IMG/VR virus record: IMGVR_UViG_3300029094_000045
Direction: 5' to 3' (one strand)
DNA from: a virus
DNA: 64,000 bases
Below the pieces are notes generated by a model. The model saw nothing but the letters and a program-made list of their open reading frames with translations. It did no database searches and had not been told where the DNA came from. A program made the translations under genes and the position numbers. This document shows positions 3,105-32,802 of this stretch, piece after piece (within the stretch, counting starts at the first letter, position 1; each line of letters opens with the position of its first letter).

Positions 3105-4108
3105 GGCGAACCACCGCCTTCTCCGACACCAAAAATGGCCTCGCGTAAACTATTATCTGCGGAGTCGTCTTCAGCTGTCTCTGGTTTATGCGCAGTCCAT
3201 TTCTCCATTTCTTCGTCGTATTCGTCTTGATATGGATTTTTTAAATGGAACATCTTCAGCAACGTACCTAGCACCCATACTCTGAAATATTTTCCAATAC
3301 CATCAACATCCTGCCATTCAGACGCAGGTTCCGGAATCGGTTCTTCTTCTTCCCACTTCTGAATCAATGTGCCAAATGTATTCGTCTCAGCCAGCGCATT
3401 ATCATTCGTCTGGTTCGGTTTAATTTGAGCCGATCCCATCAAATTCTGTAGATTATCATTAGCTTCCTTGATTTTCTTGGTATCGCCAGTAGCGTCGGCC
3501 TTTTCACAGTTCAGTTCTGCCTTTGCGATACGTTTGAACAGAATCTCCTGTGCGGCCGTCTTGCATTCGTGACGAGTAATCAAGTTCTGATAGTGCTCAT
3601 CAAGGAAAAGATAGTCACGCTCATCAAGCCCCGCGCCCCAAAATTTGGTCATTTTCAGAGTAACCTTAGTACCAGTGGTCTTGCCAGCTGCGAGCGCATC
3701 CTTTTTCTCTTGGTCAATCGTATTATCATAGGTTTCACCAGCATGTTGCCGAATATTTGAGAACCCCATATACAGGTTGATCTTCGGCGTAGACGTCTTA
3801 GTAGAACGATCAGCCATGGCGAGAATATCGTCGGAATAGACCAAATCAAACATCATGCATAGACGCTTAATGGCCTCATCTTCATTGCCATACTTTTTTG
3901 CATAGTAGTCAAATATTTTAGTTCGACACTCATTACACCACGGAAGATACCCGTCATTCCCAGCAAACCACTGGCTCTGCGTTTTTGAGAAATTAGTTTT
4001 CCGAACATTATAAATTTCCCCGCAGCACATGCATTTTCCGCCGCTCCAAGAATCAGGGATTTTTACACGAGGAGGCTTCTTATCTGCGGTAGTTCTGGCC
4101 ATCGTCAA
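3101..4108 (-). CDS. putative terminase small subunit or DNA-binding protein with a C4 zinc ribbon
   Basis: 335-aa ORF immediately upstream (in transcriptional direction) of terL. It carries CMCCGEIYNVRK...WCNECR (CxxC...CxxC). Assignment is by position only. Confidence 0.3.
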   Translation of the reverse strand: MTMARTTADKKPPRVKIPDSWSGGKCMCCGEIYNVRKTNFSKTQSQWFAGNDGYLPWCNECRTKIFDYYAKKYGNEDEAIKRLCMMFDLVYSDDILAMADRSTKTSTPKINLYMGFSNIRQHAGETYDNTIDQEKKDALAAGKTTGTKVTLKMTKFWGAGLDERDYLFLDEHYQNLITRHECKTAAQEILFKRIAKAELNCEKADATGDTKKIKEANDNLQNLMGSAQIKPNQTNDNALAETNTFGTLIQKWEEEEPIPEPASEWQDVDGIGKYFRVWVLGTLLKMFHLKNPYQDEYDEEMEKWTAHKPETAEDDSADNSLREAIFGVGEGGGSP

Positions 4109-4493
4109 TCACCTCCCGTTCCATCATCCGTCATGTCATCAAAACGATATCTTATTTCATTCTAGAGTTTAAGAATCGCATTCAACTTCTTTGTTTTGCG
4201 GAATTTTGTATATACAGAGCCCGTAGTAGGGTGCTCCCCAATTTCTTCATAGAAAATTCCCATAGAACGGATAAACAACGCCGTTCGTCTGGAATAACAG
4301 TAGAAGTAATCGCCTCCCAAATCTTTTACAAATTTTTCTTCCATCTCTTTAGTTTAGAACCCCCTTTTTAATTTAATTTCGTGGGTGCAGGTTGCGGGGA
4401 CGATCCGCACTATACTGGATTATGAGCCCAGCCAGCACACCGGCGCTGTCACCTGCGACATATAAAGCCCACCTGAAAAGATGGGCTTAAATT

Positions 4494-5183
4494 TTATTTA
4501 TTATTTTCTCTTTTGAAGAATTCATCCCATTGTTTTGCCATCGCCATTGCGACGCCATGGAATGTTTTGGCTCTATTTTTCGCATCCTCTCCACGTTTAG
4601 CTGCACCGCGATTTCTCACAATGCCTTTATTAGCCGATGTTCCACTTGGACAATAAGGTCCTTGCGGAGGTACAGCTTCGACCGGCACCAAAGAAGGGAG
4701 CCCCTTTAGCCACAGACAGGTCTTTTTAGTCCACGGATGCAATTCTCCATAGTATTCGTATGGCTGTATTGTTTGTGTAGGTTTAGGCATTTCATAAACA
4801 GAACTCGGAATGGGGTTTTCCACGCAGATATATTTGATGGGAGCATTATAAAATTTCATAAAGAAATCTTTTGCTTCCAGACCTTTCTGATACCGTTCTT
4901 GGTTCAGCTTATGTCCAGCCTATAGCCATCGTGCGCCCGCATTCGACAGATATGTGCAGGGAGGATGAGCTATTAAAAGATCCCAGCAACCAATATTATG
5001 AGTAGCTCCATCCATAGTAGTTACGATTCCGCTGTTTATAGTGGCAACTGCGTCACTTAAGATATGCTACTCTGGGTGTCCACCAGACGGGGCCTGAACA
5101 TCGCAAGAATAAGCTTCATGCCCAAGTTCTCTAAAGGCGTTGCATACTTCCTGCGATTCTTCGCACGCAATTAAAACTTTCAT
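4494..5183 (-). pseudogene. protein with a C5-methyltransferase motif IV-like PCxxxSxAGxR box; frame carries two in-frame TAG codons (4920..4922 and 5067..5069)
   Basis: Manual translation from the ATG at 5183..5181 reads MKVLIACEESQEVCNAFRELGHEAYSCDVQAPSGGHPE*HILSDAVATINSGIVTTMDGATHNIGCWDLLIAHPPCTYLSNAGARWL*AGHKLNQ... and runs into track ORF 4494..4859 in the same frame. The only two stops in 230 codons are both TAG. No SAM-binding motif I (FxGxGG) was seen, so true methyltransferase activity is doubtful. It is either a decayed gene or one read through by amber suppression. Confidence 0.4.
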
Positions 5184-5240
5184 TTGCATCCTCCACAAAA
5201 ATAAAACGCCCCAGACCAAAGTCCAGGACGTCAAAATCTA

Positions 5241-6323
5241 TCAAATTATAATTTTACTTGGTTTCTCTAGCTTGCAATCATACAGACAAGTCAAACCATC
5301 ATCGGCAATAACAGCTACGGCCTGCTGCGGGATATCATTCTTACGAATACCAACAGCGAAACTATCAGTACCACATACACAGCCGCTCTCGATAACCTTC
5401 GTGCCATGCACTGTAGTCATTCCGTTCGTGTGGCGATGTCCGAGGAAGACTAGATCAATGGGCTGTTTCACCATCATGGTCAAGTGTTCAACGACGTTGG
5501 CAGGGGAATCCTTATCCCCATGTGCATACATCACCAGACTATTACGAGCCTTGAATCCTCCAAATGTCGGATCGAGCTTATCTGTTTTGATTTCAATACC
5601 AGCCAGATTCTGCAGCCGAGCCTTCATATAAAACGGAATCAGTGCTTCAAGTTCATCGCCTGCCACCTGATCCTCTTTGCTGGGGAATACTCGTGAGTGG
5701 TTACCACTGACCGAATACACATCAATATGCTGACATACCTCATACAGCTCAGCGACAAAGTTACTCACTAGCTCTGCGGCCGTCATGACCTGTTCGATGC
5801 TATTCTCGTTATTCTGCACTCTGGTGTTTACATGGATGTGGCCATTGATGAGGTCACCAAGTAGTAACACATGAATCTTCTCAGCAGCGTGGCGTTCTAC
5901 AATGTTAAACACCTGGGCAACGTAGCTCTCCAATCGTGCTTTCAAAATCTCACGGTTAAATTTATTCCAAGCAGAATCGATTCCGGCACCCGTATGTAAG
6001 TCGGACAAACATACAATCACATCATGCCCGCTGCCTTCATACTGTACAACATTCAGAAAATCCTTCTTGTCGTATGGAACAACCTTGGCGGCGATTAGTT
6101 CTTTAATGGCTTCAACACGGGCAACATCTCGGTAAACTCTATTCGCCGCAGTGCGTTCGTCCTGCAGTTTGACCTTCTCTATTTTCAGTCGCTGCAACTC
6201 GTTTTGAATTGTCTCTTCGTTAGTATGTCCAACAGCATAGTCATAACCGGCCTTCCATGCTTTGTAAGTCTTGCGGTACCGGCATTCTCCATAGTCAGAA
6301 CCGGTTGCTTCATTCAAAAACAT
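5241..6323 (-). CDS. calcineurin-like metallophosphoesterase (SbcD/Mre11-like nuclease or protein phosphatase)
   Basis: Motifs in order: VCLSDLHTG (DxH), LLLGDLINGH (GDxx), VSGNHS (GNH), GHRHT. Confidence 0.55.
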   Translation of the reverse strand: MFLNEATGSDYGECRYRKTYKAWKAGYDYAVGHTNEETIQNELQRLKIEKVKLQDERTAANRVYRDVARVEAIKELIAAKVVPYDKKDFLNVVQYEGSGHDVIVCLSDLHTGAGIDSAWNKFNREILKARLESYVAQVFNIVERHAAEKIHVLLLGDLINGHIHVNTRVQNNENSIEQVMTAAELVSNFVAELYEVCQHIDVYSVSGNHSRVFPSKEDQVAGDELEALIPFYMKARLQNLAGIEIKTDKLDPTFGGFKARNSLVMYAHGDKDSPANVVEHLTMMVKQPIDLVFLGHRHTNGMTTVHGTKVIESGCVCGTDSFAVGIRKNDIPQQAVAVIADDGLTCLYDCKLEKPSKIII

Positions 6324-7651
6324 GGCGGCTTGATCCTACGTTAACTTCCGTTCACCGCAAGCATCGCCAATACGCATCATATAGTCGTCAAAAGTCTCTT
6401 CGTCCTTCTTTTTAAATTCGTCCATTTAGCACCTCAGATCTCAAAATTGGAGATAGTGCGTTGAGTGCGATTGAGTTCGTATAGAGCCGCCTCAGCCTCA
6501 ACATTCCCAGGAAGCTGAGTCAGAACAGACTTAATCTCCTCAGCATACCACTTATGTGTGGTGCGGGTAATATGGACATTGGGAATAACCTTCCGCAGAT
6601 AAGTAGCCTCGTTCTTAGTAATTTCAACCATAAATATTAGTTCTCCTTTTTAATTTAAAATCAAAGAGTGAAATATACAACACCCTTTCATATATTAAGA
6701 AAGTAAAGTTCATTTCGTGCATTTCGTTGTTTTTCGTCTGTATTTCGCCAGACGTGTTCGTTCCTTCTTAGCGGCGCATCCTTTGCAGTATCTACTGGCG
6801 TTTGGCTTCTCTGAATGATACTGTTCGCCACATATTGTGCAATAACACTCTTTCGGGTCAAACAGCTCACGTACGATAACGCTTAGATTAAGCCGATTAT
6901 TTTCCAGTGTCACATTGAACGTGTACGCAATCGTGTCATTCTTATCAAGAGTAAAATTTTGGTACTGATATAGGCATCCAATATCATCAGTACCTGTTCT
7001 GTTCAACAGGTGATAGCTGTCTGAAATCTCCTTCATGCCCCGCACAGTATTATAGCCGTCATCCTAGTTTTTCCCGGCGCAATACATAATCTCTGTCTGC
7101 TCTTCAAAGCAACCACCAAAACGCTTCATCTTGAACTCGGTATCCAATGCAAAGGTATCGCTTCCGTACAGTCGGCAGAAGAATATCACCCCAAACAAAA
7201 CGCGAAGCTGTGCATAGTTGATATGATACTTCCGACGCGCCTCTGTAATATACTCCAGATCTTTCTGATAAAGCACAACTTGATGTACGTCAAGTATTGG
7301 TGCATTATTTTTGCGGCCTCTGCTGAACGTCTGAATCAAGTGGCTGCGATCATAGCTGACAGACTCAGGATTTTTCATCCGCTCATAATAAATCGTGGCA
7401 CATTCAATGGGAGAGAGGGAGGTTCGCCTCAGCAGGTTTCGCAGCATCAGATTTGACTCGTGATAATCTTGCCAATGATCAAGCAGCATGTTTTCGTTAC
7501 AATAAAATGTCGTATAAGCCATTTAATCTCCTATTATAGATTATCCGTAAATATAATTTTTGATACCAATATAGATGAAGATGAAGATACTTTTCCATAA
7601 ACGAAAATGGTATAGTCCTCCAATATGCAATTAACGCGGTCATATTCATTT

Positions 7652-7906
7652 TTACACATCCTCCCAGCCCACAGATTTATGAGCGAATTTTTGAATACGC
7701 CGAGCTTCGTCCCAGCTAAACATTATCTCGCCGCAATTCGCACATTTCATAGCGGTAACATTTATGGCTTCGACTTCCTGTCCACGACAGTGGAATGTAT
7801 ATGTTAGTCCATTTGTCAGTGTCATGATTCCGCCACACTTGGGGCATTCCATCTGTTGCGAGGGTTCTTCCTGTTGCGTTTTCTTCTTTTTGAATAGATT
7901 AAACAT
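7652..7906 (-). CDS. small zinc-ribbon protein (YgiT/MqsA-type CxxC...CxxC)
   Basis: CPKCGG...CANCGE within an 84-aa ORF. Confidence 0.3.
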   Translation of the reverse strand: MFNLFKKKKTQQEEPSQQMECPKCGGIMTLTNGLTYTFHCRGQEVEAINVTAMKCANCGEIMFSWDEARRIQKFAHKSVGWEDV

Positions 7907-7920
7907 GATAAACTCCTTTG

Positions 7921-10479
7921 TTATTTTACTCTTGCTTCGTAAATTCTCGGTTCAGCTAAACTATATCGTTGACCAAGATATTCATACTCGCCGTTCGGAT
8001 CGTGAACTGGCAATTGCACGGGAACAGGTTTGATATTTTCAACTACGCCAGCACCAGCCATATGCCATAAGAACTTCTTGAATTTATTGGGATACTTCTC
8101 ATAGCAAAGCACCACAAGAATATTGGCCAGCTCTCTCACATCTGGACACACCAGCTTGCACTTGTTACGGTAGACATTGTAAATCGCCTGCCAGTTGGTT
8201 TCATAGGTCTTAGCTTCTTCTTTTGTAATTTTATCTTTGAGGTCATTCTTGTAGAGCTGCCAATTGTGGCATTTCTTTTCGAAGAGAAGCTGTTCCTTAC
8301 GGTAACGATTGAAATCAAGGAAGATAGCCTCGATCTGGTCAAATACCGACTGGTCATAGCCGATTTCTTTATCGAACATAATGTGCCAATCAAAGTTGCC
8401 AGCAGGCTCTTTATGCCAGCGAACACCACGTTCCCAACGTTCCAAACTCATACAAAGTAGACTCATATTGCTGTGCGCTTTGCTTAGATTGTGAAGCCGT
8501 GCATAATAGGGACCGTTGTATTTAAAGAAATATGGCATTCCACTTGCTTTTGCCCATTTACTGATCTGACGAGGAATAGGGTAGAGCACACCGGTTTTTG
8601 CGAAATCCACAGCTTTCCCGTTTGCTACAGAAAGAAGATCAATATAGCCCTCATATAACTGTTTTGTTTCCTCTGTACGTGCGACCCGGTTATGATATAC
8701 AGATGCCATGTTGCTGATCTCGCCAATCATACTTTTTAAACCACGAAGAGTACAAGCGAGCTTATTTTCAAGGTTGTCTATTTGGGCAAGACTAGTTACT
8801 TTGTCTTCAATATCAATAGTAACATATCCATCATCAGGGATAGTATTGATAATAATTGGCTCATTTGACAACAGCGTTAAGTCTCCATCATAATCGGCTC
8901 CAGACAAGCGTTGCGGGGTTATTGAAAACACGTTAATCATGCAGCAGTTGACGAGATGACTGCAATATTTTTGTGTCAATTCATTGTCAACACCTTTTAG
9001 CTTAACATGCTCTTGGTGACATATATGTGGGTTGCGTCCCAATGCGCGTTCACCTAAAATAACACCGCGTCTATCAAAGCTATAAAACTCATCGGCTTTA
9101 AGGCAACCCTTTATAGGAAGTTCCGCAATAGCCTCCATTAAAGCTATTTGATCTGGAAGCAGAAATTTAAATGTCGCGTTAAAAAATAGCTTTCCACACT
9201 TAAATCCATTGCGATATTTATCGAGGAGACTATGGAAATAATCTTTAACACTTGGCTCATGAACCATTTCTGGATTGCGCATAATAGCCGCAACATAATG
9301 ATTGAGTGGTTCAGTATTATCAGATAGTGCGCCAAGAAAACAGTATGTAAAAATCGGATCGCCACGTACGATCTTTTCATACCAATCTACTGATTTATCT
9401 GCTAGATGTTTAAATTCATCAAATGGAACATTCTGTAGGTCTTGGATAAGCTGGTAATTTCCTAAGCTAACTAAAACCTCTTTATCTGCTTGATAATTCC
9501 ATTTTGCAATACCTAATGCATGATCGTATTTCAAAGCAAGTTCTTTGTAGCGGTTCCAATCATTAACAGTTCCGTCTTGCTTAAAATATTTATATCCCTT
9601 GTACATGCTTTCACAAGCAATAAACATCGGCTCTGCATCACGAGTCACGGAATGTTTGATACCCCAAATGTCGGTGATTTCAGTAACACCACGCTCTTCG
9701 TAAAATGAAACATAATCCATTTCATTGAAAACACCTTTGAAATATGGCATACGAAACACCATGCTATTGATTCGTTCCGTTGTCCCAATTCGGTGCTCTA
9801 CTTCGCGCATCAAAGAAGGATGAGCAATACCGCATCCATCAAACATATTGATTTCAATGTCTGTTTCTTTTTTAGCGATTGCTTTTTGTTTCCAAGTGCG
9901 TTTTGCCCCGGTTTTCTGATCTACGAATTCGACTTCTTCGTCACGAACATATTTAATCTTTTGATTTGGAATAGTTGTAAAAGTATCTGGTACAACAATA
10001 ATTTTCGGAAACCATTCTCGAAGTGCGATACAATGACAACTTGAAAGCACAAGGCCGCGATAAGCATAATATTTACTAAGCACCGTCGGCTTGTCCTTGA
10101 AATCCAAATCCATACTGATTCGCTTATTAACTTCTGGCCAAATGTGAGATTCAACCATTGAGAAAATAAATTGACGAATCATAGAAGCGCTACGGTCGCC
10201 AAAAGAAAAATGATATTTACCGATTTTTGCGCCATGCTCAATCAAGTGACGGACTACTTTTGGCTTATTCTGAGCGCCAGTTGCATCGATAAATACAATA
10301 AAAGGATTGTAATCGTCATAGTTGTTTGACACAATTCTAATCTGACGAAGTAACATTGTATCAGACTGGAGCACTTGATATTGTGCATCGTTCGCAACTT
10401 CTGCCGGAATTTTGTAATTATATTTTATAAACAGACTTAAAGGATATTTGCGAACAGTGTAACTTTTAGGGCTGATCAA
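7921..10479 (-). CDS. large polymerase-like protein with an ADYDGD motif; candidate YonO-like single-subunit RNA polymerase
   Basis: 852-aa ORF containing SGADYDGDLTLL, which matches the NADFDGD catalytic loop of two-barrel RNA polymerases and YonO-type phage RNAPs (YonO is ~840 aa). No other polymerase-family motif (A, B or C) was recognised. The ORF is secure; the function is tentative. Confidence 0.35.
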   Translation of the reverse strand: MISPKSYTVRKYPLSLFIKYNYKIPAEVANDAQYQVLQSDTMLLRQIRIVSNNYDDYNPFIVFIDATGAQNKPKVVRHLIEHGAKIGKYHFSFGDRSASMIRQFIFSMVESHIWPEVNKRISMDLDFKDKPTVLSKYYAYRGLVLSSCHCIALREWFPKIIVVPDTFTTIPNQKIKYVRDEEVEFVDQKTGAKRTWKQKAIAKKETDIEINMFDGCGIAHPSLMREVEHRIGTTERINSMVFRMPYFKGVFNEMDYVSFYEERGVTEITDIWGIKHSVTRDAEPMFIACESMYKGYKYFKQDGTVNDWNRYKELALKYDHALGIAKWNYQADKEVLVSLGNYQLIQDLQNVPFDEFKHLADKSVDWYEKIVRGDPIFTYCFLGALSDNTEPLNHYVAAIMRNPEMVHEPSVKDYFHSLLDKYRNGFKCGKLFFNATFKFLLPDQIALMEAIAELPIKGCLKADEFYSFDRRGVILGERALGRNPHICHQEHVKLKGVDNELTQKYCSHLVNCCMINVFSITPQRLSGADYDGDLTLLSNEPIIINTIPDDGYVTIDIEDKVTSLAQIDNLENKLACTLRGLKSMIGEISNMASVYHNRVARTEETKQLYEGYIDLLSVANGKAVDFAKTGVLYPIPRQISKWAKASGMPYFFKYNGPYYARLHNLSKAHSNMSLLCMSLERWERGVRWHKEPAGNFDWHIMFDKEIGYDQSVFDQIEAIFLDFNRYRKEQLLFEKKCHNWQLYKNDLKDKITKEEAKTYETNWQAIYNVYRNKCKLVCPDVRELANILVVLCYEKYPNKFKKFLWHMAGAGVVENIKPVPVQLPVHDPNGEYEYLGQRYSLAEPRIYEARVK

Positions 10480-11302
10480 CTATTTCACTCCTTTTACAAC
10501 CAAATGGAATTGTTAATATTTCTTTTGGCGTCCAACCTCTATCATAACGGCTTCTGATTAAACTAGTGGACAGCCCCGTTAATTCAGACCATTCTAAAAT
10601 AGATTTTTTCTCTCCATTGTATTCTATCATGCGAGTATTTCTTTTATTGTTGGCTTGTTCCAACATTGTTTTCCATTGACAATTTTCTGGACAATAATTT
10701 CCATTATTATCAACACGATCTATGGTATATTGGCCTCTAGGAGCTGTTTCGTCATATCCTGTTTTATCTGCCCATTCTTTGAACCTTAAAAAATCTTGCC
10801 ACTCATCACAAACTTTAATACCTCGTCCACCGTAATTAGAATAATGTTTGTTTTCGTGCTTTGTACAACGAGACATCATAGCAAACCATACTTCATAAAG
10901 TCTTGATTTACCAAAACCACCTTGTGTAACATGAGAGCATCCACAAGTCTTTGACCGTCCATTAACCAGCAAAGAGCCTATAACATCAACTTCATTACCA
11001 CAATCACATTTGCAATGCCAATAAACTTTTTGATTAAGATATTTTGGCGAACGACAAACCACAGTTAATTTTCCAAAACGTTGTCCTGTAAGATCTTTTG
11101 CCCATTTCCGATGTTTTAAACATCCGCAACTTTTTGTATTTCCGGTTCTAAGTGCGTCTCCATCAACAATACATTCGTTTCCGCATTCACAAATACACTT
11201 CTATCTAGATCTGTGACGGCCATCAGCTTGGATGTAATCTTCCTCTTGATTTAATACAGTTAATTTCCCGAATTTTTTACCTGTTAAATCAACGAATTTC
11301 AT
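10466..11302 (-). CDS. HNH homing endonuclease with tandem N-terminal LTGxxFGKLTV/CxCxCGN modules; carries one in-frame TAG at 11201..11203
   Basis: C-terminal DRVDNNGNYCPENCQWKTMLEQANNKR is an HNH motif. The upstream frame reads MKFVDLTGKKFGKLTVLNQEEDYIQADGRHRSR*KCICECGNECIVDGDALRTGNTKSCGCLKHRKWAKDLTGQRFGKLTVVCRSPKYLNQKVYWHCKCDCGNEV...; the same module repeats on both sides of the TAG, so the frame is real across it. The start codon overlaps the stop of the preceding gene (TAATG). Confidence 0.55.
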
Positions 11303-18087: not shown

Positions 18088-18150
18088 CTACCCATAACCG
18101 GATACCCTTTCGAGGTCGCACCGTTCAAAGCGGCCTCTTTCCAACGCAGT

Positions 18151-19853: not shown

Positions 19854-22800
19854 CCTCTTTTCTTTATGCCGTGCGATTAGCGGTCACGGGGAAGATAGTA
19901 ACCGCCCCAACGCGAAAGCGTCAAAAAAATGCAATTAAACACAGTAGGAAAGGAGTCCACCAAGCATGTCTATCATTGCAATCGAATCCGCTTATGACCT
20001 CGCAATCATGTTCGGAGACAAAGAACTTGCTGCCGTATATCGTGAAGCACTTGTCGAGGCCGGCGTTCACTACGAAAGCAAGGCGACGTGCTGGGCTGAC
20101 TGAAAGGAGACTTCAATATGAAATGGATTCTGACCGCCGGGGGTGGATACACTAGTTATCAGGCACAATGTCTGAGCCCGCTCATCTGGTTGCTCGTACT
20201 CGGTGCAATCGGTTACGGCCTGATGGAGTACCTCGAATCGAACCCCAAGACCGCGGCCAAGGTAAACCGCTGGATTGAAAGGAGACTGCATGTTCATTAC
20301 GATGATGATTGAAGCATTCGGTGACGATGAAATCGGTAACATCGATTTTGATGCTCAGGACATCAAGACGCATGAAACTGAAGAAACCGCTATCGAAGAG
20401 TTTCATCGCCTCGAAAAGAAGGCGATAGGTTCTGGCGGCAATGGTTTTTACTATCGTCCGATTAAAATTAAAGTGTAAAGGAGAACACGCAGTAGTATGA
20501 ATGAAATCGAAAATCGAATCGAAGAGTTGAATACAAAGCTCGACGAGGCCGTAGATGTCTATCTGTGCGTGAAAGCAGTATTCAATCTGTATCCTTGTAT
20601 CAGATCAGAACTGGGCCTGCGTCTTGCAGCAAATCGTGTCTCTGCCGCAATCAACCGAACCGAAGAAGCATTACGGCAACTCGAAAAGGAAAAAGCTGTC
20701 ACCGCGCCGCACTTCATTCTTCGTATTGAAACCCCCAATAAGATCCTCGAGTATGAGTACGTGGGCGAATACGATGCTTTCCTTGCTTATAAAAAGGCTT
20801 GCCTTGATATGAAGCTGAGCCGCAAATCTACTCGGGTTTCTCTGAGTCGCGGCGATACCGTGTTCAAGAGCGCTGACCTGATGTGACGCCGCAGAAAGGA
20901 GCTGCGAAGCATGAAGCGCATTCGTCCTGTCCCTGAAGACTCGCGAGTGATTGCTGTGTATCCTATTTGCAATTATGGCGGCGTCGAGATCCTTTCTGTC
21001 AAAGAAGATGTCGATGCTATCAGAGCCGAGGTTGCAATCAATACGGGTGACCGCCGCGAATACAAGGAATTCTACAAAATCAATCGAACAAAAACAACTG
21101 ACCGTGCATTCTTCAAAATGTACGGTCTTCTTTATTATCTGGATCAGTTCCAGCGAATCCGATAAGGGGGCGCAGCAGTGTCTGAAACCTTCTTGGCAGT
21201 GTGTGTCTTGGCTATCTTGGCAATGGGATACGCGCTGTATCTGATCGGCGTAGCAATCTATATGTTGGGTTGCTGTCGCAAATTTAACCGCACAGTCGAT
21301 GTGATTTCACATTGGCTTTTATCATTCTGGGAAGATTGTGTCTATGATGTTATCGTAGTCGCAGCAGCTTTGGTTGTGATTATAATTTCGTTATATGGCA
21401 CTTTCTAGTATACAACAAATCAAAGAAAAGAGGAAATTAAAATGCTGTTTTACCGTGTCAAAGAAGAAGCTGACAAGAAGCCCATGTTTATCAAGAAGCG
21501 CAACGGTATCGAATACTGGTCCATCTACGTCGGTGGCGAATTGTTTACAGCAAACGAGATGGCGCTGCGTCATCTGAATCCGGACTACATGTATCCGGTC
21601 GAAGTGAATCTGCGCAAGACCCAGTTCGTGTTCGGCGCTCGTATGCCGATGCCTGACGCAAATATCACCGCAATTCAGACGAAGAAGAACGAGGAGGGTA
21701 TTTCTAATGAGATGATTAAAAACATTGTCGATTTCGTTTCTGCTGCCGGCCGTCCTCAGTCTGAGCGTAAGCGCGGTGTCGTTCGCGTCTGCAAATCACA
21801 GTCTGGTTCAGTCGCCCACGGCTAACTCGGCGGCGGCACTCAACTCGGCGGGCAGATACATTCTCGGCGGCATTGTTAGCGCGGCGTACTACGAAAACGG
21901 TACGCGAGTTCTGAATATCGTCGATGAGAGTGGCGAAGTCTGGTGTGCAACTGTGCTGAGGACTGACCCGGCGGGTGACTAACCTAGCGAAAAACAACCT
22001 GACGGTTGGGAGGTGACTTAATGGCATCTGAATTTGTTCCTGAGTATGTCGTCGTCGTAGAGATCCCTTATCCGAGACGAATTCAAACCAAGACTACAAG
22101 TTTCGCTACGCTTGAAGAAGCGGCTCGTGAGTATTATGGCTATAAAAATTATATCCGCAATAACGCCGATGGCTATCATGCGTGGCTGAAAAAGAAGTCG
22201 GAAGACGGAAGCTACAAAGTGCTCGAAGAGTGCTCGTATGAGATCCTTCATCCGTCGGAGAAATAAATCTCAAGCGCAACAACCCAAACAAAGTATTCGC
22301 AGAGGGCTCCCCAGCAATAGTTGGGGAGTAATGCGGCTACGGAGACTGCAGAAATCCGTACTGGTCCCAAGCCCAGAACGCAGCAGCGTAAAGAAGCGGG
22401 CGCTCCGCAGCCATAATGAAATCCGATTCGATTTTGATGTGATGGCCACACTGATAAATCGATGACGAGAGTAAATTATGGGGCGTTTCTTGAATGAGCG
22501 AAACTAAACGAAAGGAGGGTTTATAGCTTGAATTGTAAACTTTGTTGCCCGCAATCGGTGGGCGTAGCAGCTGGTGCAAAGGTCGCGTCTTACTCCACTG
22601 AGCGAAATTTCATGGCATGGCGATACAAACTGTTCTGGCACCTAATTTAGATTGAGTTTTTTTGACTGATTTGGCAGTTGATGCTACAGGGGTAGTTGTC
22701 CCCGATATGTTTGATGGGATCATATAATAAAACCTATCTGGTGTCACCGACCATGTTCCTCGCCTGAAATATGGGAGACAAAAATAAGTGAAGGGCGGAT

Positions 22801-24664
22801 TGTCGCTAGTTCCAATGGAACCAACCGGATCTTTCCTTAGCCTTACGAGGTTGAAATGTCGGGCGACTGGTGGTACCGAGGCAGACGTAACCACATCCAC
22901 TACATGCGTAGTAAACGCAATAGCATACACACGCGAAAAGAAAAGAGGAAATCAACATGAACACCGCGAAACTGATTGAATCCCTTCCTCCGAGGATCAA
23001 AGACCACGTGATCGAATATCAGGATGTTATCTTGAAGGGCGGTCAGCCGGCAATGCGAGTGCTACTTGACTGTATCTTGTCGCCGGGTCAGAAGGCGCTC
23101 TTACAAGGCAACAAGCACATCATTGGGCTGGAGTGTGTCGCTCAGGACAAATACGCCCCAGAAATCAAGCATTCTTACTTCTACATGGTATGAGAGCAGC
23201 TATGTATAATCCGCAGAGAACGCAGCGGGTAAAAAGGGGGAAGTTGTAACAATGATGGTACATATCTTAGATAATTCCTATTCCAAGCGAGTCAAAGGCC
23301 AGTCGTGGATGATGTTCAATCATTACAATGGGGATGTCTAAAGCAGTCTTGAGTGTGCTATGAAAATGTTGACCGAAATGGCAAAATCGGTGAGTGCAGA
23401 CCCGGAGTGTTATGATGTCGTGTTCAATGCCAATAGACGCAATCTTCGTTATCGTTGGAAAAACTGGGACGATGATGAGATTGAGTGTTTTGTCCAGATT
23501 GAATCAAAAGAAGTGAAATGAAAGGAGCTATTCAGTATGGTTCTCAATATGACTGAACTTCCTCTTATGAGCTGGTCGCCGGAGCAGTTCGAAGCAGCCC
23601 GTAAGCTCTGTGCGGATGGCATCATTCATAGCATGGAGTTGCCTACGATCCTGCCGATTGATAACGTAATTGATATACGCAATATGGCTGTCGATGCTGA
23701 AATGGCTGCGGCTGTACATCATCCTGACGCAATCGTTATTCAGGGCGAACCTATCTTTGTGTATGAATTCGTTAATGCCTGTAAAGAAGAGATTCCGCAG
23801 ATTCAGTGTTATTCACCTTGCTATAAGGACGGCAAGTTCGTGCAGTTCAGAAGGTTTTGATTATGTGCCAAAAATGTAACTTCAAATTAAACAACCATGT
23901 TTTATGGAAGAGCAAAAACGAATGGCTGCTTACGTCAAAGAGCAACTATTTTGCAGAGCACATCGATATGAGTCAGGTAGAAAAACTTGGTCCAGACTAT
24001 TACGTAGCATTGGGAGCTGCAGTTTGGAAATATTCGGATGATGTCGTTGTTTTTAGTGGAAACACACCACAAGTATAACCGTTTCTAGTGCAAAAAGAAA
24101 GGAGATGTCGTAGGATGTCTGATTGGAAACTCGGTAAAGATATGATCCCCAGCGATACGATTCTTGACCCTGTCACGTTCGATGATCTGATTCTGGCTCT
24201 GAAGTGTAATTGTAAGTACATTACGAAGGGCGCAGTCATTGCTCAAGCGACGGCAATTATCAGTCAGCGGCTGGAAGATTGGAAGTATCTAATTGAAAAC
24301 AACATCGACGAAGTCATTGCGCTGGCAGCGGATGAACCGCTTAAAGACGCTGGTCACGATGACATCACCCTCGAAGAGTAATAAGGAGAGCGGCCGTGAA
24401 AAACTTGTCTAAACAGAACCGCAAGAAAATCTTTGATCTGATCAAGCGTGATTGTACGTTTGTTGGTTCATATGACATGGAGCGTTCGGAAGAAACGGTT
24501 TTGACTTATCTCCCGAAGCCCGGCACGCAGATTCACAAAGATGTTGAAGAGGTTCGTGTCATAAAGAACCGCAAGACTGGTAACTGGATCGAATCAGTTG
24601 TCGATATCCGATGGATACCGGGTATGACCTTGGTAGAAGCCGAAATGATTGAAAGAAAATATCA

Positions 24665-25324: not shown

Positions 25325-27410
25325 GAGGGGCGAAACATAATGAAAAAGATCCTGATTACATACGAAGCTTCCATTGAGACTGGTGACAAATTGGAATACG
25401 GAGAAGCTGCCACGACTCTCGATTTTATCACCGACAATATGGCTCTCGAACTCGTAGATACGATTGGTAAACCATACCACTCCTGGAAACCCATTGGACG
25501 AGTTGCAAGGTCTCGGGTTACTGAGATTCTTATCAATCTGGAGCGGCTTCGTGGACGAATCTATGTAGCCAATTCTATTAAGAGCGTCGAAATCATTTCC
25601 GATTCTTAAATGGCGAATAATTTACGCTTAAAAGTTGTGAAATTCAATCAATGGGAACAATTCACCAATTGACTGATACGACTATCGGTTGTACAATGAA
25701 AGGACGAATATCGTGTCACCAGTGAAGGAGTGGAGAACTTCACAGTCGATGTTGAAAACTTTTGAACGACGATTGCAATGCAACAATAATTCATCTTTTC
25801 GATGATAACCAAATTCAATCGCTCAATCATTCTGTACGAAAATCACCAGTGAAAAACAATCGCCAATAAAGCAGTCGTTCGAAGCCAAGCGAGCGACGAG
25901 CGAAGTGTGGCGAGAAAAAGAAAACTGATGGTTATGTAGTAAGGGGTTATAGGGTTAAGAGTAGATTGTTAAGGAGAGAGAAGACCATCCGGGGAACGGA
26001 GTAGAAGGAAGAGGCCATTGAGCCTGAAAGCTGAAAGGAAAAAATTCTATGGCAAATTTAGCACTGGGCACCCACGAGTTCAAACCCGACGAGATGATTG
26101 GGTTGATTAGGCAGTACGATTTCTTTATGCTTTCGTTTGGCGACGATCCGCTTTTGCAGATTCGAGTCCCGACGAGATGGGTTAGACTTGAGATGGCGAA
26201 CAATGGTGTAAGCTATCTTACCTGTCGAGATAAGCGTAAGCGAGACGGACATCTGTTTAAAATCAGCGCCAACAAGTTTGTTTTTGACGTTGACCATAAC
26301 AGCGGACGGCTGAGTGGCAATTTCAAGTTTGACCTTAATGAAACCAATCTTTACGTCGTCATGTGGGGCAGCTCCGACGTGCCAGCCGACGATGATGAGT
26401 GAGTGCATCAGCAGAAAGGAGCGATAAATTGTGGAAAGCGAAAACGTAATGAGAGCCACTGAGGAACGTCCCCGTCTGAGTCGAGAAGAGCAGGAGACCA
26501 TCATAACCACATCTGCGGCCGACGATACGGCTGAAGTGTACACTGCTGACCCGATCTACATGCGAAAGCTGGACAAGCGGGTTGAACAGGACCCTGGCAA
26601 CTACAAGGTCAAGAGCCGCAATACTTACAGTGCGACCTACACGATGCCCAAGCGACTGTTGCAGTTCCGGCTGCCGACTGCGCCTCGTGAACTGACTGAA
26701 GAACAGCGCGCAGAACTCCGTGAACGAATGAAAAAAGCACAAGCGGCTCGACAGAATAAGGCCAGCATCAATTCTCAGCCGAATTCATAAAGAGTTTGAC
26801 TGTATTCCAAACATACATCATGGTTCGGTAATGAAATTACTCTACCGAGACGTGTTAACAGTTTTTTATCGAGACTTTGTAGGAGAAAAATGACCTACTT
26901 TGAAATCGGGGAGGCGAATGAGTATGATACCGCAACGCTTTGACGATACCGCATAGAGACTGCTGTGCAAGTAGCGTCACAACAAAAACACAGTAAACAA
27001 GTAGACAGATTGAGATGAATAGTAAGTCGAGAGATTTACGCAGCTGCCAAAGGCGACTGTAACGAAAAGGTAAGACGAGACAACCAACCCGACCTGGAGG
27101 AGACTACATGTACTGAGGAGCTCGGACGCGCGCGGAGGGCAGAAAAAAAAACGGAACGCCACAGGGAAGAAATGCGTACCAAATGCTCGCGTGTAGAGGT
27201 CAGATACAGACCGAAATCGCGATGAAAGGCGGAAATTATTCCGAATCTGAAGCCTGCTGCACGCCTGCGGACATCACGTGATCGCTCAGGATCCTCCTAA
27301 GGAATAGCACGAATGTGTTTAGATCTCAATCATGCAACAAAAATATATGTTGAAAGAGAGTTGAAAGCTAATGTAGTGAATTAAGATCCGTTATTATCGA
27401 GGCACGATTT

Positions 27411-27680
27411 GTGATGAATAATTGTCCAATACGGATAATGCATTCAGGTCAAACCGAATGTGACGAATTGTTAAGATGGAATACCCATCAGGACAGAAGA
27501 CCGGCAGCCGGATCGGCTAGGAAGGCAGTCCGAAATGATGACTATGAGTAACAAAACCAGGAATAGAACGCAAACTCAAGGGGTAGAAGTCCTAGCAGAG
27601 AACCAAATGAGATGGTCCAAGATCGGGAAAATCGCCTCCAGTGCCCCGAGGCAGCGCTCAAACAGCACTATTTAGATCAC
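27411..27680 (+). ncRNA. conserved structured non-coding element, copy A
   Basis: About 270 nt that align in blocks with copy B at 40219..40476: gtgatgaata; aatgcaYtcaggtYaaaccgaRtgtgacgaattgt; gaaccaaat...gatgag; tttagatcac. The stem cattc/gaatg (27441..27460) shows compensatory changes relative to cactc/gagtg in copy B. It lies in a 1-kb ORF-free, purine-rich region. Confidence 0.4.
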
Positions 27681-27854
27681 AAATCCCCTATTATAATAAT
27701 GAAGGTTGTGATGTTAACAACAAAAGATGGATAAAAGTGAGTACAACCATTTGTCTATATTTACCATTGACAACAACTCATGGTTTGTGCAATACTATTT
27801 ACACAGACGACAAAGTCACTTTTCAATACTTGCAAACGAAAGGAACGAGGTAAA

Positions 27855-29203: not shown

Positions 29204-29281
29204 CCGGGTGTGGCGAAGCTGGTATCGCGCTAGTTTTGGGATCTAGAGATTTCGCCCGTTCGAATCGGGTCACTCGGACCA
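29204..29281 (+). tRNA. tRNA-Pro (anticodon TGG), CCA encoded
   Basis: Acceptor ccgggtg/cactcgg (7 bp including one GU); D stem gcga/tcgc; anticodon stem ctagt/tctag; loop tTTGGGa; T arm gcccg-TTCGAAT-cgggt; then A-CCA. Confidence 0.7.
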
Positions 29282-29423
29282 GTGTGTAGGGTTTCCGCAT
29301 TTTTCCTTACATAACAAACAACTTAGAAACGCCTCCTTTCATTGTGCTGCTTATCACAATCTTTCGATTTCTAAGTTGTCGTGGCTGAAAACGCCGAGCG
29401 GGTACGATAATCCCGTTTTATAT

Positions 29424-29464
29424 GAGGTCAATGATTACTTCTGGGTTTGATTCCCGGAGACCTC
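29424..29464 (+). other. tRNA mini-helix (acceptor stem plus T arm only)
   Basis: gaggtca-(10 nt)-ctggg-TTTGATT-cccgg-agacctc: 6 of 7 acceptor pairs and a 5-bp T stem. At 41 nt it is too short for a tRNA. It sits just 5' of the tmRNA-like gene. Confidence 0.3.
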
Positions 29465-29471
29465 TCTATAT

Positions 29472-29855
29472 GGGCCCGAAAGGTTTTCGACAGGGCTAAG
29501 AAAAAATTACAATTCGCAGGTCGGCCATCACCTTACGAGGCAAAAACAAATAAACGCTAACAACAACAGTTATCGTTGCGCGGCTTGATGCCGTGCCCAA
29601 AACAGCATCCTGATAGGCAGGTAAATGCTTGACGGTTCAAAGAATAAATCCCGGAACCCGATGTAAACGGTAAGAAACACTAGCGTTCTCGGACGTCAAA
29701 ACCGAGTGGTGGAGTGATGTAACAACCGTTACGTCCCTAGGTTTGCTGCGTCGGCGGCATGAATTCCTTTTCAAAATTCTAAATGCTGGCTATTGCGTAA
29801 GAAAATTGTAATTGAGTATTAGTTTTGGACGTGGGTTCGAATCCCACCGGGTCCA
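29472..29855 (+). ncRNA. ssrA: tmRNA (ssrA)-like gene, one-piece, with variant tag ANNNSYRCAA
   Basis: The 5' strand GGGCCCG (29472..29478) pairs perfectly with the 3' strand CGGGTCC (29848..29854) and includes a G3-U70 wobble, the AlaRS identity pair. The conserved 5' motif UUCGACAGGG matches E. coli GAUUCGACGGG. The 3' end GGACGUGGGUUCGAAUCCCACC matches E. coli GGACGCGGGUUCAACUCCCGCC. The tag frame GCU AAC AAC AAC AGU UAU CGU UGC GCG GCU UGA starts about 85 nt from the 5' end, as in E. coli, and encodes ANNNSYRCAA (E. coli ANDENYALAA). Total length ~384 nt. CCA is not encoded. Confidence 0.6.
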
Positions 29856-30264
29856 TAGCGGCGCAAGCCGCAAAGCTAGGTTCGATTCTGTCGGCGTGGA
29901 GTAGCACGTCGGTAGATGGGGTGGCGCAATTCCACCGTGGGTGATCATACTCCCCCTCTGACACATCCATAACGCTCTGACCGAAAATAATAACCATGAT
30001 GCAACGGGAGTAGCTACCCGCCACAGTGGATGTGCATGGCTCTATTATGTGTAGGCGAATATGGCACTGCCTGCGAAAGTGGCATAGATGCTCGGTGCCC
30101 AGAGCATCGGAGAGTGAATTTGAAAGGGCAGCCTTTGAGGATGGACACCATAAGAGACCTATTCGCTTATGTGTTGTATCCACTGACGCGACTGAGTATA
30201 GTGCAGACTTTGTAAGCCGCTTGCTTCTCGCTGATGTCGTTACATGGTTAAATCCTCCTCTCTG

Positions 30265-30342
30265 GGGCTAGTAGCTTAGTCTGGTTAAAGCCGGCAGCTC
30301 ATAACTGCTTGATCGGGGGTTCAAATCCCTCCTGGCCCACCA
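30265..30342 (+). tRNA. tRNA-Met (anticodon CAT), elongator-type, CCA encoded
   Basis: Acceptor gggctag/ctggccc; D stem gctt/aagc; anticodon stem ggcag/ctgct; loop cTCATAa; T arm ggggg-TTCAAAT-ccctc; A-CCA. The anticodon stem lacks the three G-C pairs of initiator tRNAs. Confidence 0.7.
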
Positions 30343-30636
30343 TTTTTAGTAACATTTTGAAAGAAGGTATGAATCATGGCAAATCCGAATATCAAAGAAA
30401 TCGTTGAATGGATGATTGAAAAAGCGAAAGATAGGGCTTCCGATAGCATCGCAGTCATTGATGAAGGAGAAATCGTTAAAGAGTTCGGAGTGGAGTCTGG
30501 ATGGCTTCAGAGCCATGGTCCAGAAATCTATCACGAATGCGATCGGCACTCAGAAGTTTTGGACTCTTTGATTTACACTGGAAATGATAGAGATTATTGG
30601 TCTATTCAGCTTACCATTAACAAGGAGTAAATCAAA

Positions 30637-31329
30637 ATGACTGATAAATATCTCAGTATCATCACGAACTTCGGGTGCCACTACAGCTGCCCTGAGTGTA
30701 TTGTCCGCAATAACAAGCTTAAGATGACACCGACAGTGGAGTATTCCTCTTACGCTCAGCTGTGGCATGTTCTTCATAACGAATGCAATGATTGCGATTG
30801 GGTGTCTGTTTCTGGTGGTGGCGATCCATTGTATCACTGGTGGGAACATCAGGCATGGTGGTTCGGATTCTTCGAGATGTGTTGGCGTTCTTTTCGCAAG
30901 ATTGAGCTGCATACCAGTTACTTTGATGTAGAAAATAATCACGAGATTATGTTGTTTCCGTTTGATAAATTCGACCGTGTTGTCTACCATGTTCACGGGC
31001 TGGATGATCTTGATGAGATTCGTCGTCGAGGCAATGAAATCGTCCGCGTAGTCTTTGTTGTTGATGACGATATGACTGAGGACGAAATCAATGGAATCGC
31101 TGATAATGTAGAAGCGTCAGACCAAATTGACGAGCTTTCGTTCCGGCAGCGTGTGGACGATAACTACGAGGCAACTTATCATCTGCATGATTTCCTGAAG
31201 GCCGGTCATCAGAAACGCTGGTGGTACATTGAACAGTGTGATTACAATATCTACTATCATAACGGTAAGCTGTTCACGAAGTATACCGATATCTTTGATT
31301 CTGAGGCGGTAAGTTATGAAAAAACATAA
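30637..31329 (+). CDS. radical SAM enzyme (QueE-like or RNR-activase-like)
   Basis: N-terminal NFGCHYSCPECI matches CxxxCxxC, and VSGGGDPLYHWW matches the GGE/GGD SAM-binding motif. GCxYSCxxC resembles B. subtilis QueE AGCDYSCSWC. 230 aa with no SPASM-type C-terminal cysteine cluster. Confidence 0.55.
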   Translation: MTDKYLSIITNFGCHYSCPECIVRNNKLKMTPTVEYSSYAQLWHVLHNECNDCDWVSVSGGGDPLYHWWEHQAWWFGFFEMCWRSFRKIELHTSYFDVENNHEIMLFPFDKFDRVVYHVHGLDDLDEIRRRGNEIVRVVFVVDDDMTEDEINGIADNVEASDQIDELSFRQRVDDNYEATYHLHDFLKAGHQKRWWYIEQCDYNIYYHNGKLFTKYTDIFDSEAVSYEKT

Positions 31330-31552
31330 AGATTTATTGCTGGCAGCTTGCGCATCGGCTGTTTCGTTTTTGAGTCTCAATGCCATTTTTGAGAAACTTC
31401 TACGGCACATCTCGCTTGTTCAAATGGCAACAGGAAGTATAAGTTCTCTTTACGGACGTGTCAGCGAGGCGGCTCTTTCGGTATCTGTAGCTCTGTCACT
31501 TGCGATTGGAGCTGTAGTATATATTCTGTTCAAAAATTAAAAGGAGGAACGA

Positions 31553-32464
31553 ATGAAGAATTTCAAAAAGATTTTCGTGGTTTCGTGTGCAATCGTGATG
31601 GCGCTGACCTTTACGGGGTGTACCAAGAAAGAGGTGTATACAATCGAACCTCATGAAACCGCATTTCTGATTTCACTCTCTGAGGGCGGGGAAAATCAGG
31701 CGTCTTTTGAGAGTGAGGCAATGCTCGCCGAGGCAAAGGTGGCAGCCAAGCAGGTATACATTACTTACTCGAAGCGGCATCTGTCACCGACTGACATCCT
31801 TGGTACTTGGGTTCCGGACAACATGTTGGTCATCGTTAATAGAACTCCTGTTACTCGTGAATGGTCCGAGGGCAAGGATAGTGGCACCAGCACTGTCAAT
31901 CAGTCCATCTCTGCCGAAAGCAAGGAGTCTATTGGCTTCTCCGTCGGCATGAACTGCTCTGCTCAGATCTACACTGAAAACGATGCAGTCAAGTTCCTGT
32001 ATTCCTACAACAACAAGCAGCTCTCCGAGATTATGGATACTGAAATCCGTGCGCGTGTAGAAGCTGACTTTGTTGAAAAGTGCGCCAAGTACACCATGAA
32101 TGAGATCCTTGAGAAGAAGGCCGAGATCATGGAGTATGTCCGCAAGGATGTGACTGAGTATTTTGCAGAGCGCGGTATCACGATTACGGTCCTTGGTATG
32201 AAGGATGGCATTGAGTACGACGATGCGTCTGTTCAGGCTGCTATTAACAAGTCCTTTGTGGCCGAGCGCAATGACGAGGCGCAGGAGATTGAGAATCAGA
32301 CCAAGATTTCCAAGGCGAACGCAGAAGCCGAGGCGAATAAAATCATCTCTGAGTCTCTAACTGACCGGCTGATTCAGCAGCAGATGTATGAAAAGTGGGA
32401 CGGTAAGCTTCCGACTTATGTTGGCGGCGATACCAGCGTCCCTGTACTGAACGATATGAAGTAA
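31553..32464 (+). CDS. SPFH (band-7/HflC-like) domain lipoprotein
   Basis: Signal peptide with lipobox ...ALTFTGC; the C-terminal half AEAEANKIISESLTDRLIQQQMYEKWDGKLPTYV is a typical SPFH/band-7 Ala/Glu-rich helix. Confidence 0.5.
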   Translation: MKNFKKIFVVSCAIVMALTFTGCTKKEVYTIEPHETAFLISLSEGGENQASFESEAMLAEAKVAAKQVYITYSKRHLSPTDILGTWVPDNMLVIVNRTPVTREWSEGKDSGTSTVNQSISAESKESIGFSVGMNCSAQIYTENDAVKFLYSYNNKQLSEIMDTEIRARVEADFVEKCAKYTMNEILEKKAEIMEYVRKDVTEYFAERGITITVLGMKDGIEYDDASVQAAINKSFVAERNDEAQEIENQTKISKANAEAEANKIISESLTDRLIQQQMYEKWDGKLPTYVGGDTSVPVLNDMK

Positions 32465-32504
32465 CCTGTGTAAGCAGTGGCGGCTCGGAAAGACGAGCAT
32501 ATAT

Positions 32505-32587
32505 GTTTCGGTGCTGGAATCGGCAGACAGGGGAGTCTCAAAAACTTCTGCGCAAGCATGTGGGTTCAAGTCCCATCCGAAACACCA
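32505..32587 (+). tRNA. tRNA-Leu (anticodon CAA), type II, CCA encoded
   Basis: Acceptor gtttcgg/ccgaaac; anticodon stem ggagt/acttc; loop cTCAAAa; long variable arm; T arm tggg-TTCAAGT-ccca; A-CCA. Confidence 0.65.
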
Positions 32588-32717
32588 GGGCGGACGTTTC
32601 ACCGCCTCTTTTCATACATCTCCTTTCCCTCACAGATGCTTAGTGGTTCATGGGTTCCAGACATGAATCACCGTGACTGAACAAGTCGTAGCAGGTACGC
32701 AATCCTGCTCTTGATAA

Positions 32718-32802
32718 GCCATAGTGGTGGAACTGACATACACTTCCGTTTTAGGGGCGGACGCCGCAAGGATTGAGGGTTTGAATCCCTCCTATGGCAC
32801 CA
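32718..32802 (+). tRNA. tRNA-Leu (anticodon TAG, reads CUA/CUG), type II, CCA encoded
   Basis: Acceptor gccatag/ctatggc; anticodon stem tccgt/gcgga; loop tTTAGGg; 13-nt variable arm; T arm gaggg-TTTGAAT-ccctc; A-CCA. The anticodon is 5'-UAG-3', not the amber-suppressor CUA. Confidence 0.6.

Follow-up and report, generated by a model that had tools for sequence, protein, structure and literature searches.

In-frame UAG codons in the late genes of an SPbeta-like phage are probably read as tryptophan by a phage-encoded tRNA(CUA)

The DNA stretch of the IMG/VR virus record IMGVR_UViG_3300029094_000045 analyzed here (64 kb at full length, referred to as the window) is under half of a phage genome, related contigs being 138-151 kb, and carries TAG codons inside coherent reading frames of its late genes. 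These in-frame UAG codons are likely decoded as tryptophan by a phage tRNA with a CUA anticodon, tRNA(CUA), which is related to the tRNA-Trp(CCA) found in the same genomic slot of relatives. A scan of the coding strand with TAG treated as sense detected six in-frame TAGs in five adjacent genes of the late block, between 4.1 and 11.3 kb of the window (Table 1), a set far beyond chance. All genes from 1 to 16.7 kb are on the minus strand, so an in-frame TAG appears as CTA on the plus strand. An initial annotation of the window had reported three in-frame TAGs, and no other stops, in genes for a DNA methyltransferase (MTase) and an HNH endonuclease, and had weighed amber suppression limited to a few genes against recent decay of selfish genes. 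All three TAGs are present, on the minus strand and in an MTase frame of 229 codons, and both gene labels agree with the PHROGs matches, although Pfam searches with the read-through MTase and HNH proteins gave no matches. The list was incomplete, however, as the TAGs in a 79-amino-acid (aa) protein gene, a YonJ-like metallophosphatase gene and a 270-aa protein gene are also in frame.

For the 79-aa gene, read-through extends an open reading frame (ORF) of 60 aa to one of 79 aa, whose terminal TGA overlaps the start of the YonG-like gene, and code-15 gene calls on public contigs also yield the 79-aa product. For the YonJ-like gene (TAG context LT[TAG]DQAAMFLNEATGSDYGECR), the product grows from 360 to 394 aa, and Pfam YonJ_N matches the 394-aa calls. 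The 270-aa gene consists of ORFs of 152 and 117 codons joined by read-through (N[TAG]DDGYNTVR), and under code 11 it falls into pieces of 152 and 111 aa. Besides the TAGs at codons 39 and 88, the MTase frame has no stop; the contexts of these two sites are GGHPE[TAG]HILSDAVATINSGIVTTMDGATHNIGCWDLLIAHPPCTYLSNAGAR and WL[TAG]AGHK, the first being GGHPEWH in homologs. The HNH frame is interrupted solely by the TAG at codon 34. This TAG had been placed between two copies of an LTGxxFGKLTV...CxCxCGN module, but it actually lies within the first copy, at the position where the second copy has W (YWHCKCDCGN).

Table 1. Coordinates of the in-frame TAGs, candidate TAG terminators, RNA polymerase gene and RNA features (window positions unless stated otherwise)
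Feature	Position	Strand	Details
79-aa late-operon gene	4105..4344	-	TAG 4162..4164 (codon 61)
DNA methyltransferase (MTase), accessory	4494..5183	-	phrog_757 (DNA methyltransferase); TAGs 5067..5069 (codon 39) and 4920..4922 (codon 88)
YonJ-like metallophosphatase, 394 aa with read-through	5241..6425	-	TAG 6336..6338 (codon 30)
270-aa late-operon gene	6710..7522	-	TAG 7064..7066 (codon 153)
YonO-type single-chain RNA polymerase, 852 aa	7921..10479	-	PF05183; TTG start
HNH endonuclease, 278 aa with read-through	10466..11302	-	phrog_374 (HNH endonuclease); TAG 11201..11203 (codon 34)
Ambiguous TAG	21406..21408	+	Terminates a 76-aa membrane ORF; same frame as the following gene (ATG 21442)
Type-P5 twister ribozyme	22298..22376	+	RF02684, 50.7 bits (gathering threshold 37.6); within the ORF-free stretch ~22267..22956
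First tRNA cluster	29204..34270	+	Pro-UGG, tmRNA, Met, Leu-CAA, Leu-UAG, Gly-CCC, Gly-UCC, Leu-UAA
tmRNA	29472..29858	+	RF00023, 93.6 bits; between tRNA-Pro and tRNA-Met; tag ANNNSYRCAA
Other candidate TAG terminator	56897..56899	+	Ends a 57-aa ORF; in-frame TGA five codons on
tRNA(CUA)	15798..15876 of contig L348; ~69.2 kb window-equivalent		Second tRNA cluster, 5.2 kb beyond the window end

The block that contains these genes was identified as an SPbeta-like late-gene region by its 852-aa gene for a YonO-type RNA polymerase (RNAP). The structural and lysis genes of SPbeta form a single late operon, which is transcribed by YonO (PMC5467207). The genes 3´ of the RNAP gene in the window share one orientation and include YonJ-, YonG-, YonD-, YonB-, YomW-, YomV- and YomU-like genes (YomU being the tail tube). 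The yonO-type gene of the window itself is without TAG; a TAG at 10480..10482 is non-coding, following a Shine-Dalgarno sequence just 5´ of the TTG start.

For comparison, the read-through proteins were used as tblastn queries against 75 IMG/VR loci surrounding the RNAP gene. In ~150 related phage loci, each of the six window sites is either TAG or TGG and nothing else, and the alignments continue unbroken through each site, down to ~35% identity. Codon 61 of the 79-aa protein is TAG in 22 relatives and TGG in 8, with the alignment running on beyond the TAG. Codon 30 of the YonJ-like protein is TAG in 28 and TGG in 53, the latter including all relatives at 34-42% identity, and codon 153 of the 270-aa protein is TAG in 28 and TGG in 49, with relatives at 33-37% identity aligning singly over residues 3-264. 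For codon 34 of the HNH protein, we counted 14 TAG and 5 TGG among orthologs at 88-98% identity. Among intact MTase homologs (58-83% identity), codon 39 is Trp in all 14 and codon 88 is Trp, Phe or Tyr; the closest of them (83% identity) have TGG at both sites. The MTase gene is a clean insertion or deletion (window 4467..5202) that is absent from the GenBank relative MT836002 and from the IMG/VR relatives, and both of its TAGs are kept in ten near-identical contigs and present in about 22 short public contigs. TAG and TGG states are mosaic among close relatives. In MT836002, for example, the HNH TAG is kept despite 7 substitutions in the gene, and the 79-aa gene has TGG. Intact relatives without the TAGs, which the initial annotation had expected to count against recoding, were thus seen, but they do not refute it, as those relatives lack the suppressor tRNA described below.

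The codon specificity of the change was apparent when genes of relatives without TAGs were used as queries for the RNAP region. Of 65 TGG codons in this region, 13 are replaced by TAG in one relative or more, compared with 1 of 87 CAG codons, 2 of 267 TAT or TAC codons and none of 393 AAG, GAG, TTG and TCG codons (Fisher p = 8e-13). In selected late-operon genes (74 loci, 21 kb), a survey of in-frame stops gave 281 TAGs at Trp positions, compared with 5 at Tyr and 2 each at Phe, Gln and Thr. Other in-frame stops in this survey were two Trp-to-TGA changes and seven TAAs, bringing everything other than TAG at Trp to ~20. Mutation from TGG to TGA is equally easy and yet nearly absent, so mutation alone is ruled out as the explanation. 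Under a Trp reading, TAG at the few Tyr and Phe sites would be a conservative change. The in-frame TAGs therefore align with tryptophan in homologs and not with glutamine, so the re-prediction under genetic code 15 advised in the initial annotation relies on the wrong table.

The TAGs are not limited to accessory genes. TAG-for-Trp codons also occur in core late genes, namely, in some relatives, the genes for the RNAP (TAG at Trp 114, 308, 642 or 682 of the yonO-type gene), YonG-like and structural proteins. Of the proposal of amber suppression limited to a few genes, suppression itself is supported by the phage tRNA(CUA), but the TAGs extend beyond selfish genes to the YonJ-like, 270-aa and 79-aa genes of the window and the YonO, YonG and structural genes of relatives. 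Within the genome, in contrast, TAG is confined to the late block, with 14 of 50 Trp codons changed there and 0 of 80 in the regions of the two tRNA clusters, for the same set of genomes (p = 4e-7).

As the initial annotation had stated, the window is without a CUA-anticodon tRNA, and none was detected by ARAGORN, Rfam in gathering mode or Rfam in E-value mode. Likewise, none was found within ±10 kb of YonO (75 loci) or around the first tRNA cluster (66 loci). A query with a 353-aa neighbour protein matched only 2 loci. Through exact-protein look-ups at the right end of the window, we reached a second tRNA cluster, which contains a tRNA(CUA) scoring 51.6 bits against the Rfam tRNA model (sequence GCGCCCATAGCTTAAATGACAAAGCCGCAGTCTCTAAAACTGCCATTTCTTGTAGGTTCAAATCCTGCTGGGCGTGCCA). 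The contig concerned, L348 (JGI 3300045988 Ga0495776_088955, 137.9 kb), is 100.0% identical to the last 10,584 bases of the window. ARAGORN labels this RNA tRNA-Pyl, which is merely the name the tool gives to a CUA anticodon, and the TAGs align with Trp in unrelated phage proteins. Across 64 loci, the slot between tRNA-Lys(UUU) and tRNA-Ser(UGA) holds a CUA tRNA, a tRNA-Trp(CCA), neither or, in one case, both. The CUA tRNAs in the slot are of at least four sequence types, and the commonest Trp(CCA) type has a 5´ half as in one suppressor type and a T arm as in another. Ten CUA and four CCA tRNAs fit one cloverleaf, with 98.3% of cells pairing and compensatory changes in 16 of 21 pairs. All CUA tRNAs that encode the 3´ CCA (15 of 16 distinct sequences) have G1·U72 and discriminator G73, and the Trp tRNAs of the clade have A1-U72 or G1·U72, also with G73; U1-A72 is found in the Gln tRNAs of the clade and A73 in most other isotypes. 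CUA and Trp tRNAs have the anticodon loops CU-CUA-AA and CU-CCA-AA, respectively. An IMG/VR scan for the anticodon arm GCAGTCTCYAAAACTGC returned at least 66 Trp tRNAs, but the scan is circular, the anticodon being within the pattern, and shows no more than how common this arm is in phage Trp tRNAs.

The presence of this tRNA matches the presence of in-frame TAGs. The late operon and the tRNA slot could both be compared in 37 contigs. Each of the 26 that carry the CUA tRNA has 4-8 TAG-for-Trp codons in a 21-kb late slice, and no such codon occurs in any of the 11 that are without it, of which 7 have Trp-CCA and 4 have neither tRNA (Fisher p = 1e-9). Both states are found within an 85%-identity group of the YonB-like protein, with suppressors of several types. 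The search for a suppressor tRNA elsewhere in the phage, recommended in the initial annotation, was answered in the affirmative, with agreement in 37 of 37 contigs.

Together, these observations suggest a model in which the phage encodes an amber suppressor in its second tRNA cluster that retains a Trp-type acceptor end and anticodon loop and would be charged by the tryptophanyl-tRNA synthetase (TrpRS) of the host. Charging by host TrpRS is assumed given that no class-I aminoacyl-tRNA synthetase motifs (HIGH, KMSKS) or release-factor motif (GGQHVN) were found in ~105 kb of surveyed clade DNA, a weak negative. With such a suppressor, TGG-to-TAG transitions would have accumulated and in part become fixed at Trp codons of the late block (6 in the window, 4-8 per 21-kb slice in relatives), being tolerated or favored only in genes translated while the suppressor tRNA is present, and TAG has been nearly lost as a terminator. 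Metabolic and accessory genes surround the tRNA cluster, which is in the part of the genome encoded on the opposite strand, while the TAGs are in and around the YonO late block. This separation fits the published model in which late-gene translation depends on a phage tRNA. Translation of the late block may thus be tied to earlier expression of the phage tRNA cluster, serving as a temporal or lysogeny safeguard, as proposed for phages that read TAG as Gln, although this timing or gating of late genes is our inference. We also lean, with less assurance than for the decoding itself, toward the wider view that an SPbeta-like clade in gut Clostridia has a natural UAG-to-Trp code, an assignment with no documented case in phages or bacteria, with a suppressor derived from tRNA-Trp that close relatives have gained, lost or exchanged for tRNA-Trp(CCA) in one slot, and with a translational gate restricted to the late block.

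Several points weigh against decoding as Trp. Only alignments and features of the tRNA point to the identity of the inserted residue. TAG is absent from most structural genes of this phage, a small number of TAGs are aligned with Tyr, Phe, Gln or Ala, and the tRNA(CUA) lies outside the window itself. The genome survey covered ~105 kb only, and the Fisher test of co-occurrence ignores phylogeny. With the anticodon arm masked and phage tRNAs in general as the reference, the tRNA body is not distinctly more similar to Trp tRNAs than to those of other isotypes; its best non-self matches are weak Arg and Met tRNAs, which are not diagnostic. Moreover, the nucleotide affected by a C35-to-U change is a known identity element for TrpRS, and a tRNA-Trp(CUA) receives largely Gln in E. 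coli. Given this mischarging, the residue inserted would depend on the synthetases of the host.

The strongest of the competing explanations, though in our estimate an unlikely one, is the standard phage code 15, in which the tRNA(CUA) would insert glutamine. Published phage amber recodings are of this kind (crAss-like, Lak and phAss phages), U35 favors glutaminyl-tRNA synthetase (GlnRS) in E. coli, and seven TAG sites align with Gln. Public gene calls also translate the TAGs as Q, as in P0001, a database protein 99% identical to the MTase, yet the underlying DNA is TAG, so the Q is that of a code-15 gene call. Set against this, late-operon TAGs align 281 times with Trp and twice with Gln, and TGG codons were converted far more often than CAG codons (13/65 compared with 1/87). 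Several sites are Trp in every intact homolog examined, such as GGHPEWH in the MTase. In addition, the acceptor end resembles that of the Trp tRNAs of the clade and not the U1-A72 of its Gln tRNAs, and the phages also carry a separate tRNA-Gln(UUG).

Slightly less probable still is an inefficient or ambiguous suppressor, with termination competing with insertion of Trp, Gln or both, so that the TAGs would chiefly lower the output of the genes that carry them. Release factor 1 of the host is presumably active, and the surveyed parts revealed no release-factor or aminoacyl-tRNA synthetase gene. The density of TAGs is low, and two TAGs in the window still look like terminators. A purine follows TAG in 41 of 48 distinct contexts and follows TGG codons in 40 of 64, a weak hint of possible selection for suppression efficiency. 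Nevertheless, TAG is found only at Trp positions, which shows that a product of read-through is tolerated only with a Trp-like residue, and the TAG-bearing YonO RNAP and YonJ-like proteins of relatives must reach useful amounts.

We consider it very improbable that recent nonsense mutations are turning selfish or accessory MTase and HNH genes into pseudogenes, the second option of the initial annotation. The MTase gene is indeed an accessory indel, HNH genes often decay, and for some genes separate translation of both code-11 fragments is possible in principle. The signature of pseudogenes, with mixed stops, arbitrary residues, frameshifts and lost downstream conservation, was nonetheless absent; only TAG was seen, and only at Trp. 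The same TAGs persist among relatives at 80-99% identity, conserved or swapped only for TGG, and YonJ-like, YonG-like, YonO and structural genes are affected as well. Frameshifts are absent and TGA or TAA codons nearly so (2 TGG-to-TGA changes compared with 281 TAGs at Trp), the sequence 3´ of the TAGs is conserved to ~35% identity, and the link with the tRNA(CUA) is perfect. Finally, editing of UAG to UIG in the mRNA, read as UGG as at the amber/W site of hepatitis delta virus, would have the same outcome of amber to Trp but is scarcely credible, as the TAGs and a dedicated tRNA(CUA) occur together without exception, an editing enzyme was not identified, and the UACG motif of bacterial TadA is not matched by the bases 3´ of the TAGs. 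Since the tRNA explains the data, neither RNA editing nor an artefact of DNA modification was retained as an explanation.

TAG is also depleted at gene ends. At most 2 of ~105 window genes end in TAG, and in relatives without the suppressor TAG accounts for 3-4% of gene ends, which is unlike the situation that the initial annotation had regarded as refuting recoding, with TAG as common as other stops. TAG depletion has been proposed to precede recoding (Borges et al. preprint), and the low use of TAG at gene ends of the suppressor-less relatives resembles this depletion. Of the two candidate terminators in the window (Table 1), the one ending the 76-aa ORF may be a true stop or give rise to a read-through fusion. 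No other stop separates the 76-aa ORF from the following 127-aa ORF (window 21178..21825, plus strand), such that suppression would give a 215-aa fusion. The downstream ATG is preceded by a strong Shine-Dalgarno sequence, AAGAGGA, and the TAG is kept in 4 suppressor-bearing relatives. In the presence of the suppressor, the fusion would be made beside separate 76-aa and 127-aa products. For the other candidate, the in-frame TGA five codons on would make read-through harmless.

Recoding does not rescue the ORF-free stretches 22270..22956, 25610..26048 and 26791..27854, as the initial annotation had thought possible. TAA, TGA and TAG occur in all six frames of these stretches, and reassignment of any single stop was rejected for this reason. 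ORF coverage under alternative codes was uninformative, since dropping any stop codon lengthens ORFs. A type-P5 twister ribozyme was detected in the first stretch, and no Rfam match was obtained for 25610..26048 (0.44 kb) or ~26791..27779 (1.0 kb). A RAGATH-5-like match at 18098..18150 scored 42.8 bits, below the threshold of 50. The tmRNA of the first tRNA cluster has counterparts in some relatives (tag ANNNSYRCAA or ANYNSYRCAA) and is absent from others. In the second tRNA cluster, the slot after tRNA-Thr (L348 14390..14464) holds a tRNA with a near-constant body and a variable anticodon (AUA, AUG, GUA or a 6-nt loop); in other genomes, compared over the contigs L279-L342, the slot is occupied by a Gly-GCC, Phe-GAA, Leu-UAA or Ser-UGA tRNA. 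As a tRNA, the AUA version reaches 54 bits, and its A34-U35-A36 anticodon is unusual for bacteria.

The phage is probably an SPbeta-like phage or prophage with a host among gut Clostridia. More distant relatives of the RNAP (45-54% identity) were found in metagenome-assembled genomes of Oscillospiraceae, Lachnospiraceae and other Clostridia. The contigs L349, L353 and L354 that carry the phage are 342, 360 and 461 kb long, compared with a genome of ~148 kb, which suggests a prophage within the host chromosome. These 342-461 kb contigs would permit identification of the host and a look at its TrpRS and GlnRS. Pfam matches on contigs overlapping the right part of the window (gene calls of L154 1..3867) point to an NAD-salvage block at 51.5-55.4 kb on the plus strand, with NAMPT/NAPRTase, NAD synthase, isochorismatase/nicotinamidase and Macro domain genes, and a gene for a PemK-like toxin lies directly beyond the window end.

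If UAG is indeed read as Trp, this phage would represent a third recoding route. Surveys of phages recoded relative to their hosts list only TAG-to-Gln and TGA-to-Trp (Borges et al. preprint). A full-text search of open-access papers for TAG- or UAG-to-Trp returned only work on the Balanophora plastid. Phage recoding by suppressor tRNAs is thus already known, and we found no earlier report of TAG-to-Trp in phages. The amino acid assigned to a reassigned stop is suggested to depend on which tRNA the phage mutates together with the host synthetases on offer. There are also practical consequences for annotation. Code-11 pipelines fragment the genes, as in the JGI calls on a contig 99.98% identical to the window (29 and 360 aa for the YonJ-like gene, and further pieces of 152, 60, 121 and 198 aa), and code-15 pipelines place Gln at conserved Trp positions, and a public protein catalogue already contains one such sequence (P0001). 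Since the clade includes close relatives that have the suppressor and others that lack it, with TGG or TAG at defined sites, it provides a natural experiment on the onset of reassignment and on whether late genes are gated by it, and the tRNA(CUA) is a candidate natural Trp-inserting amber suppressor for Firmicutes.

Compared with known systems, the phage most readily recalls the gut phages that read TAG as Gln (crAss-like, Lak and phAss-1), with which it shares in-frame TAGs in conserved genes, a phage tRNA(CUA), TAG-poor termini, a concentration of recoded codons in late genes, fragmentation of genes by standard annotation and a host that presumably uses the standard code. It differs from them in that TAG would be Trp, the lineage is SPbeta-like and has a YonO RNAP, a single slot alternates between tRNA-Trp(CCA) and tRNA(CUA) among close relatives, and the density is much lower, with 6 codons in 64 kb compared with TAG in 41 of 147 ORFs of phAss-1. 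SPbeta itself, set alongside by family matches, also has a YonO-type RNAP followed by Yon/Yom-like genes in the same orientation, but no stop-codon recoding has been described there. As in phages that read TGA as Trp (code 4), a stop would be read as Trp through a phage suppressor tRNA, and the stop and TGG alternate, but here the pair is TAG and anticodon CUA rather than TGA and UCA, with W-to-TGA at only 2 sites. The assignment of TAG to Trp is the same as in the plastid code of Balanophoraceae, which we take to be NCBI table 32. That code is organelle-wide in an extremely AT-rich plastid, whereas the one proposed here is virus-borne and block-restricted inside a standard-code cell. A parallel for the tRNA itself is su7/supU, an amber suppressor of E. 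coli in which U replaces C35 of a Trp tRNA; it is a laboratory mutant that is largely mischarged with Gln in that host. In the phages, by contrast, natural selection appears to keep TAG at Trp positions, which would imply insertion of Trp in the natural host.

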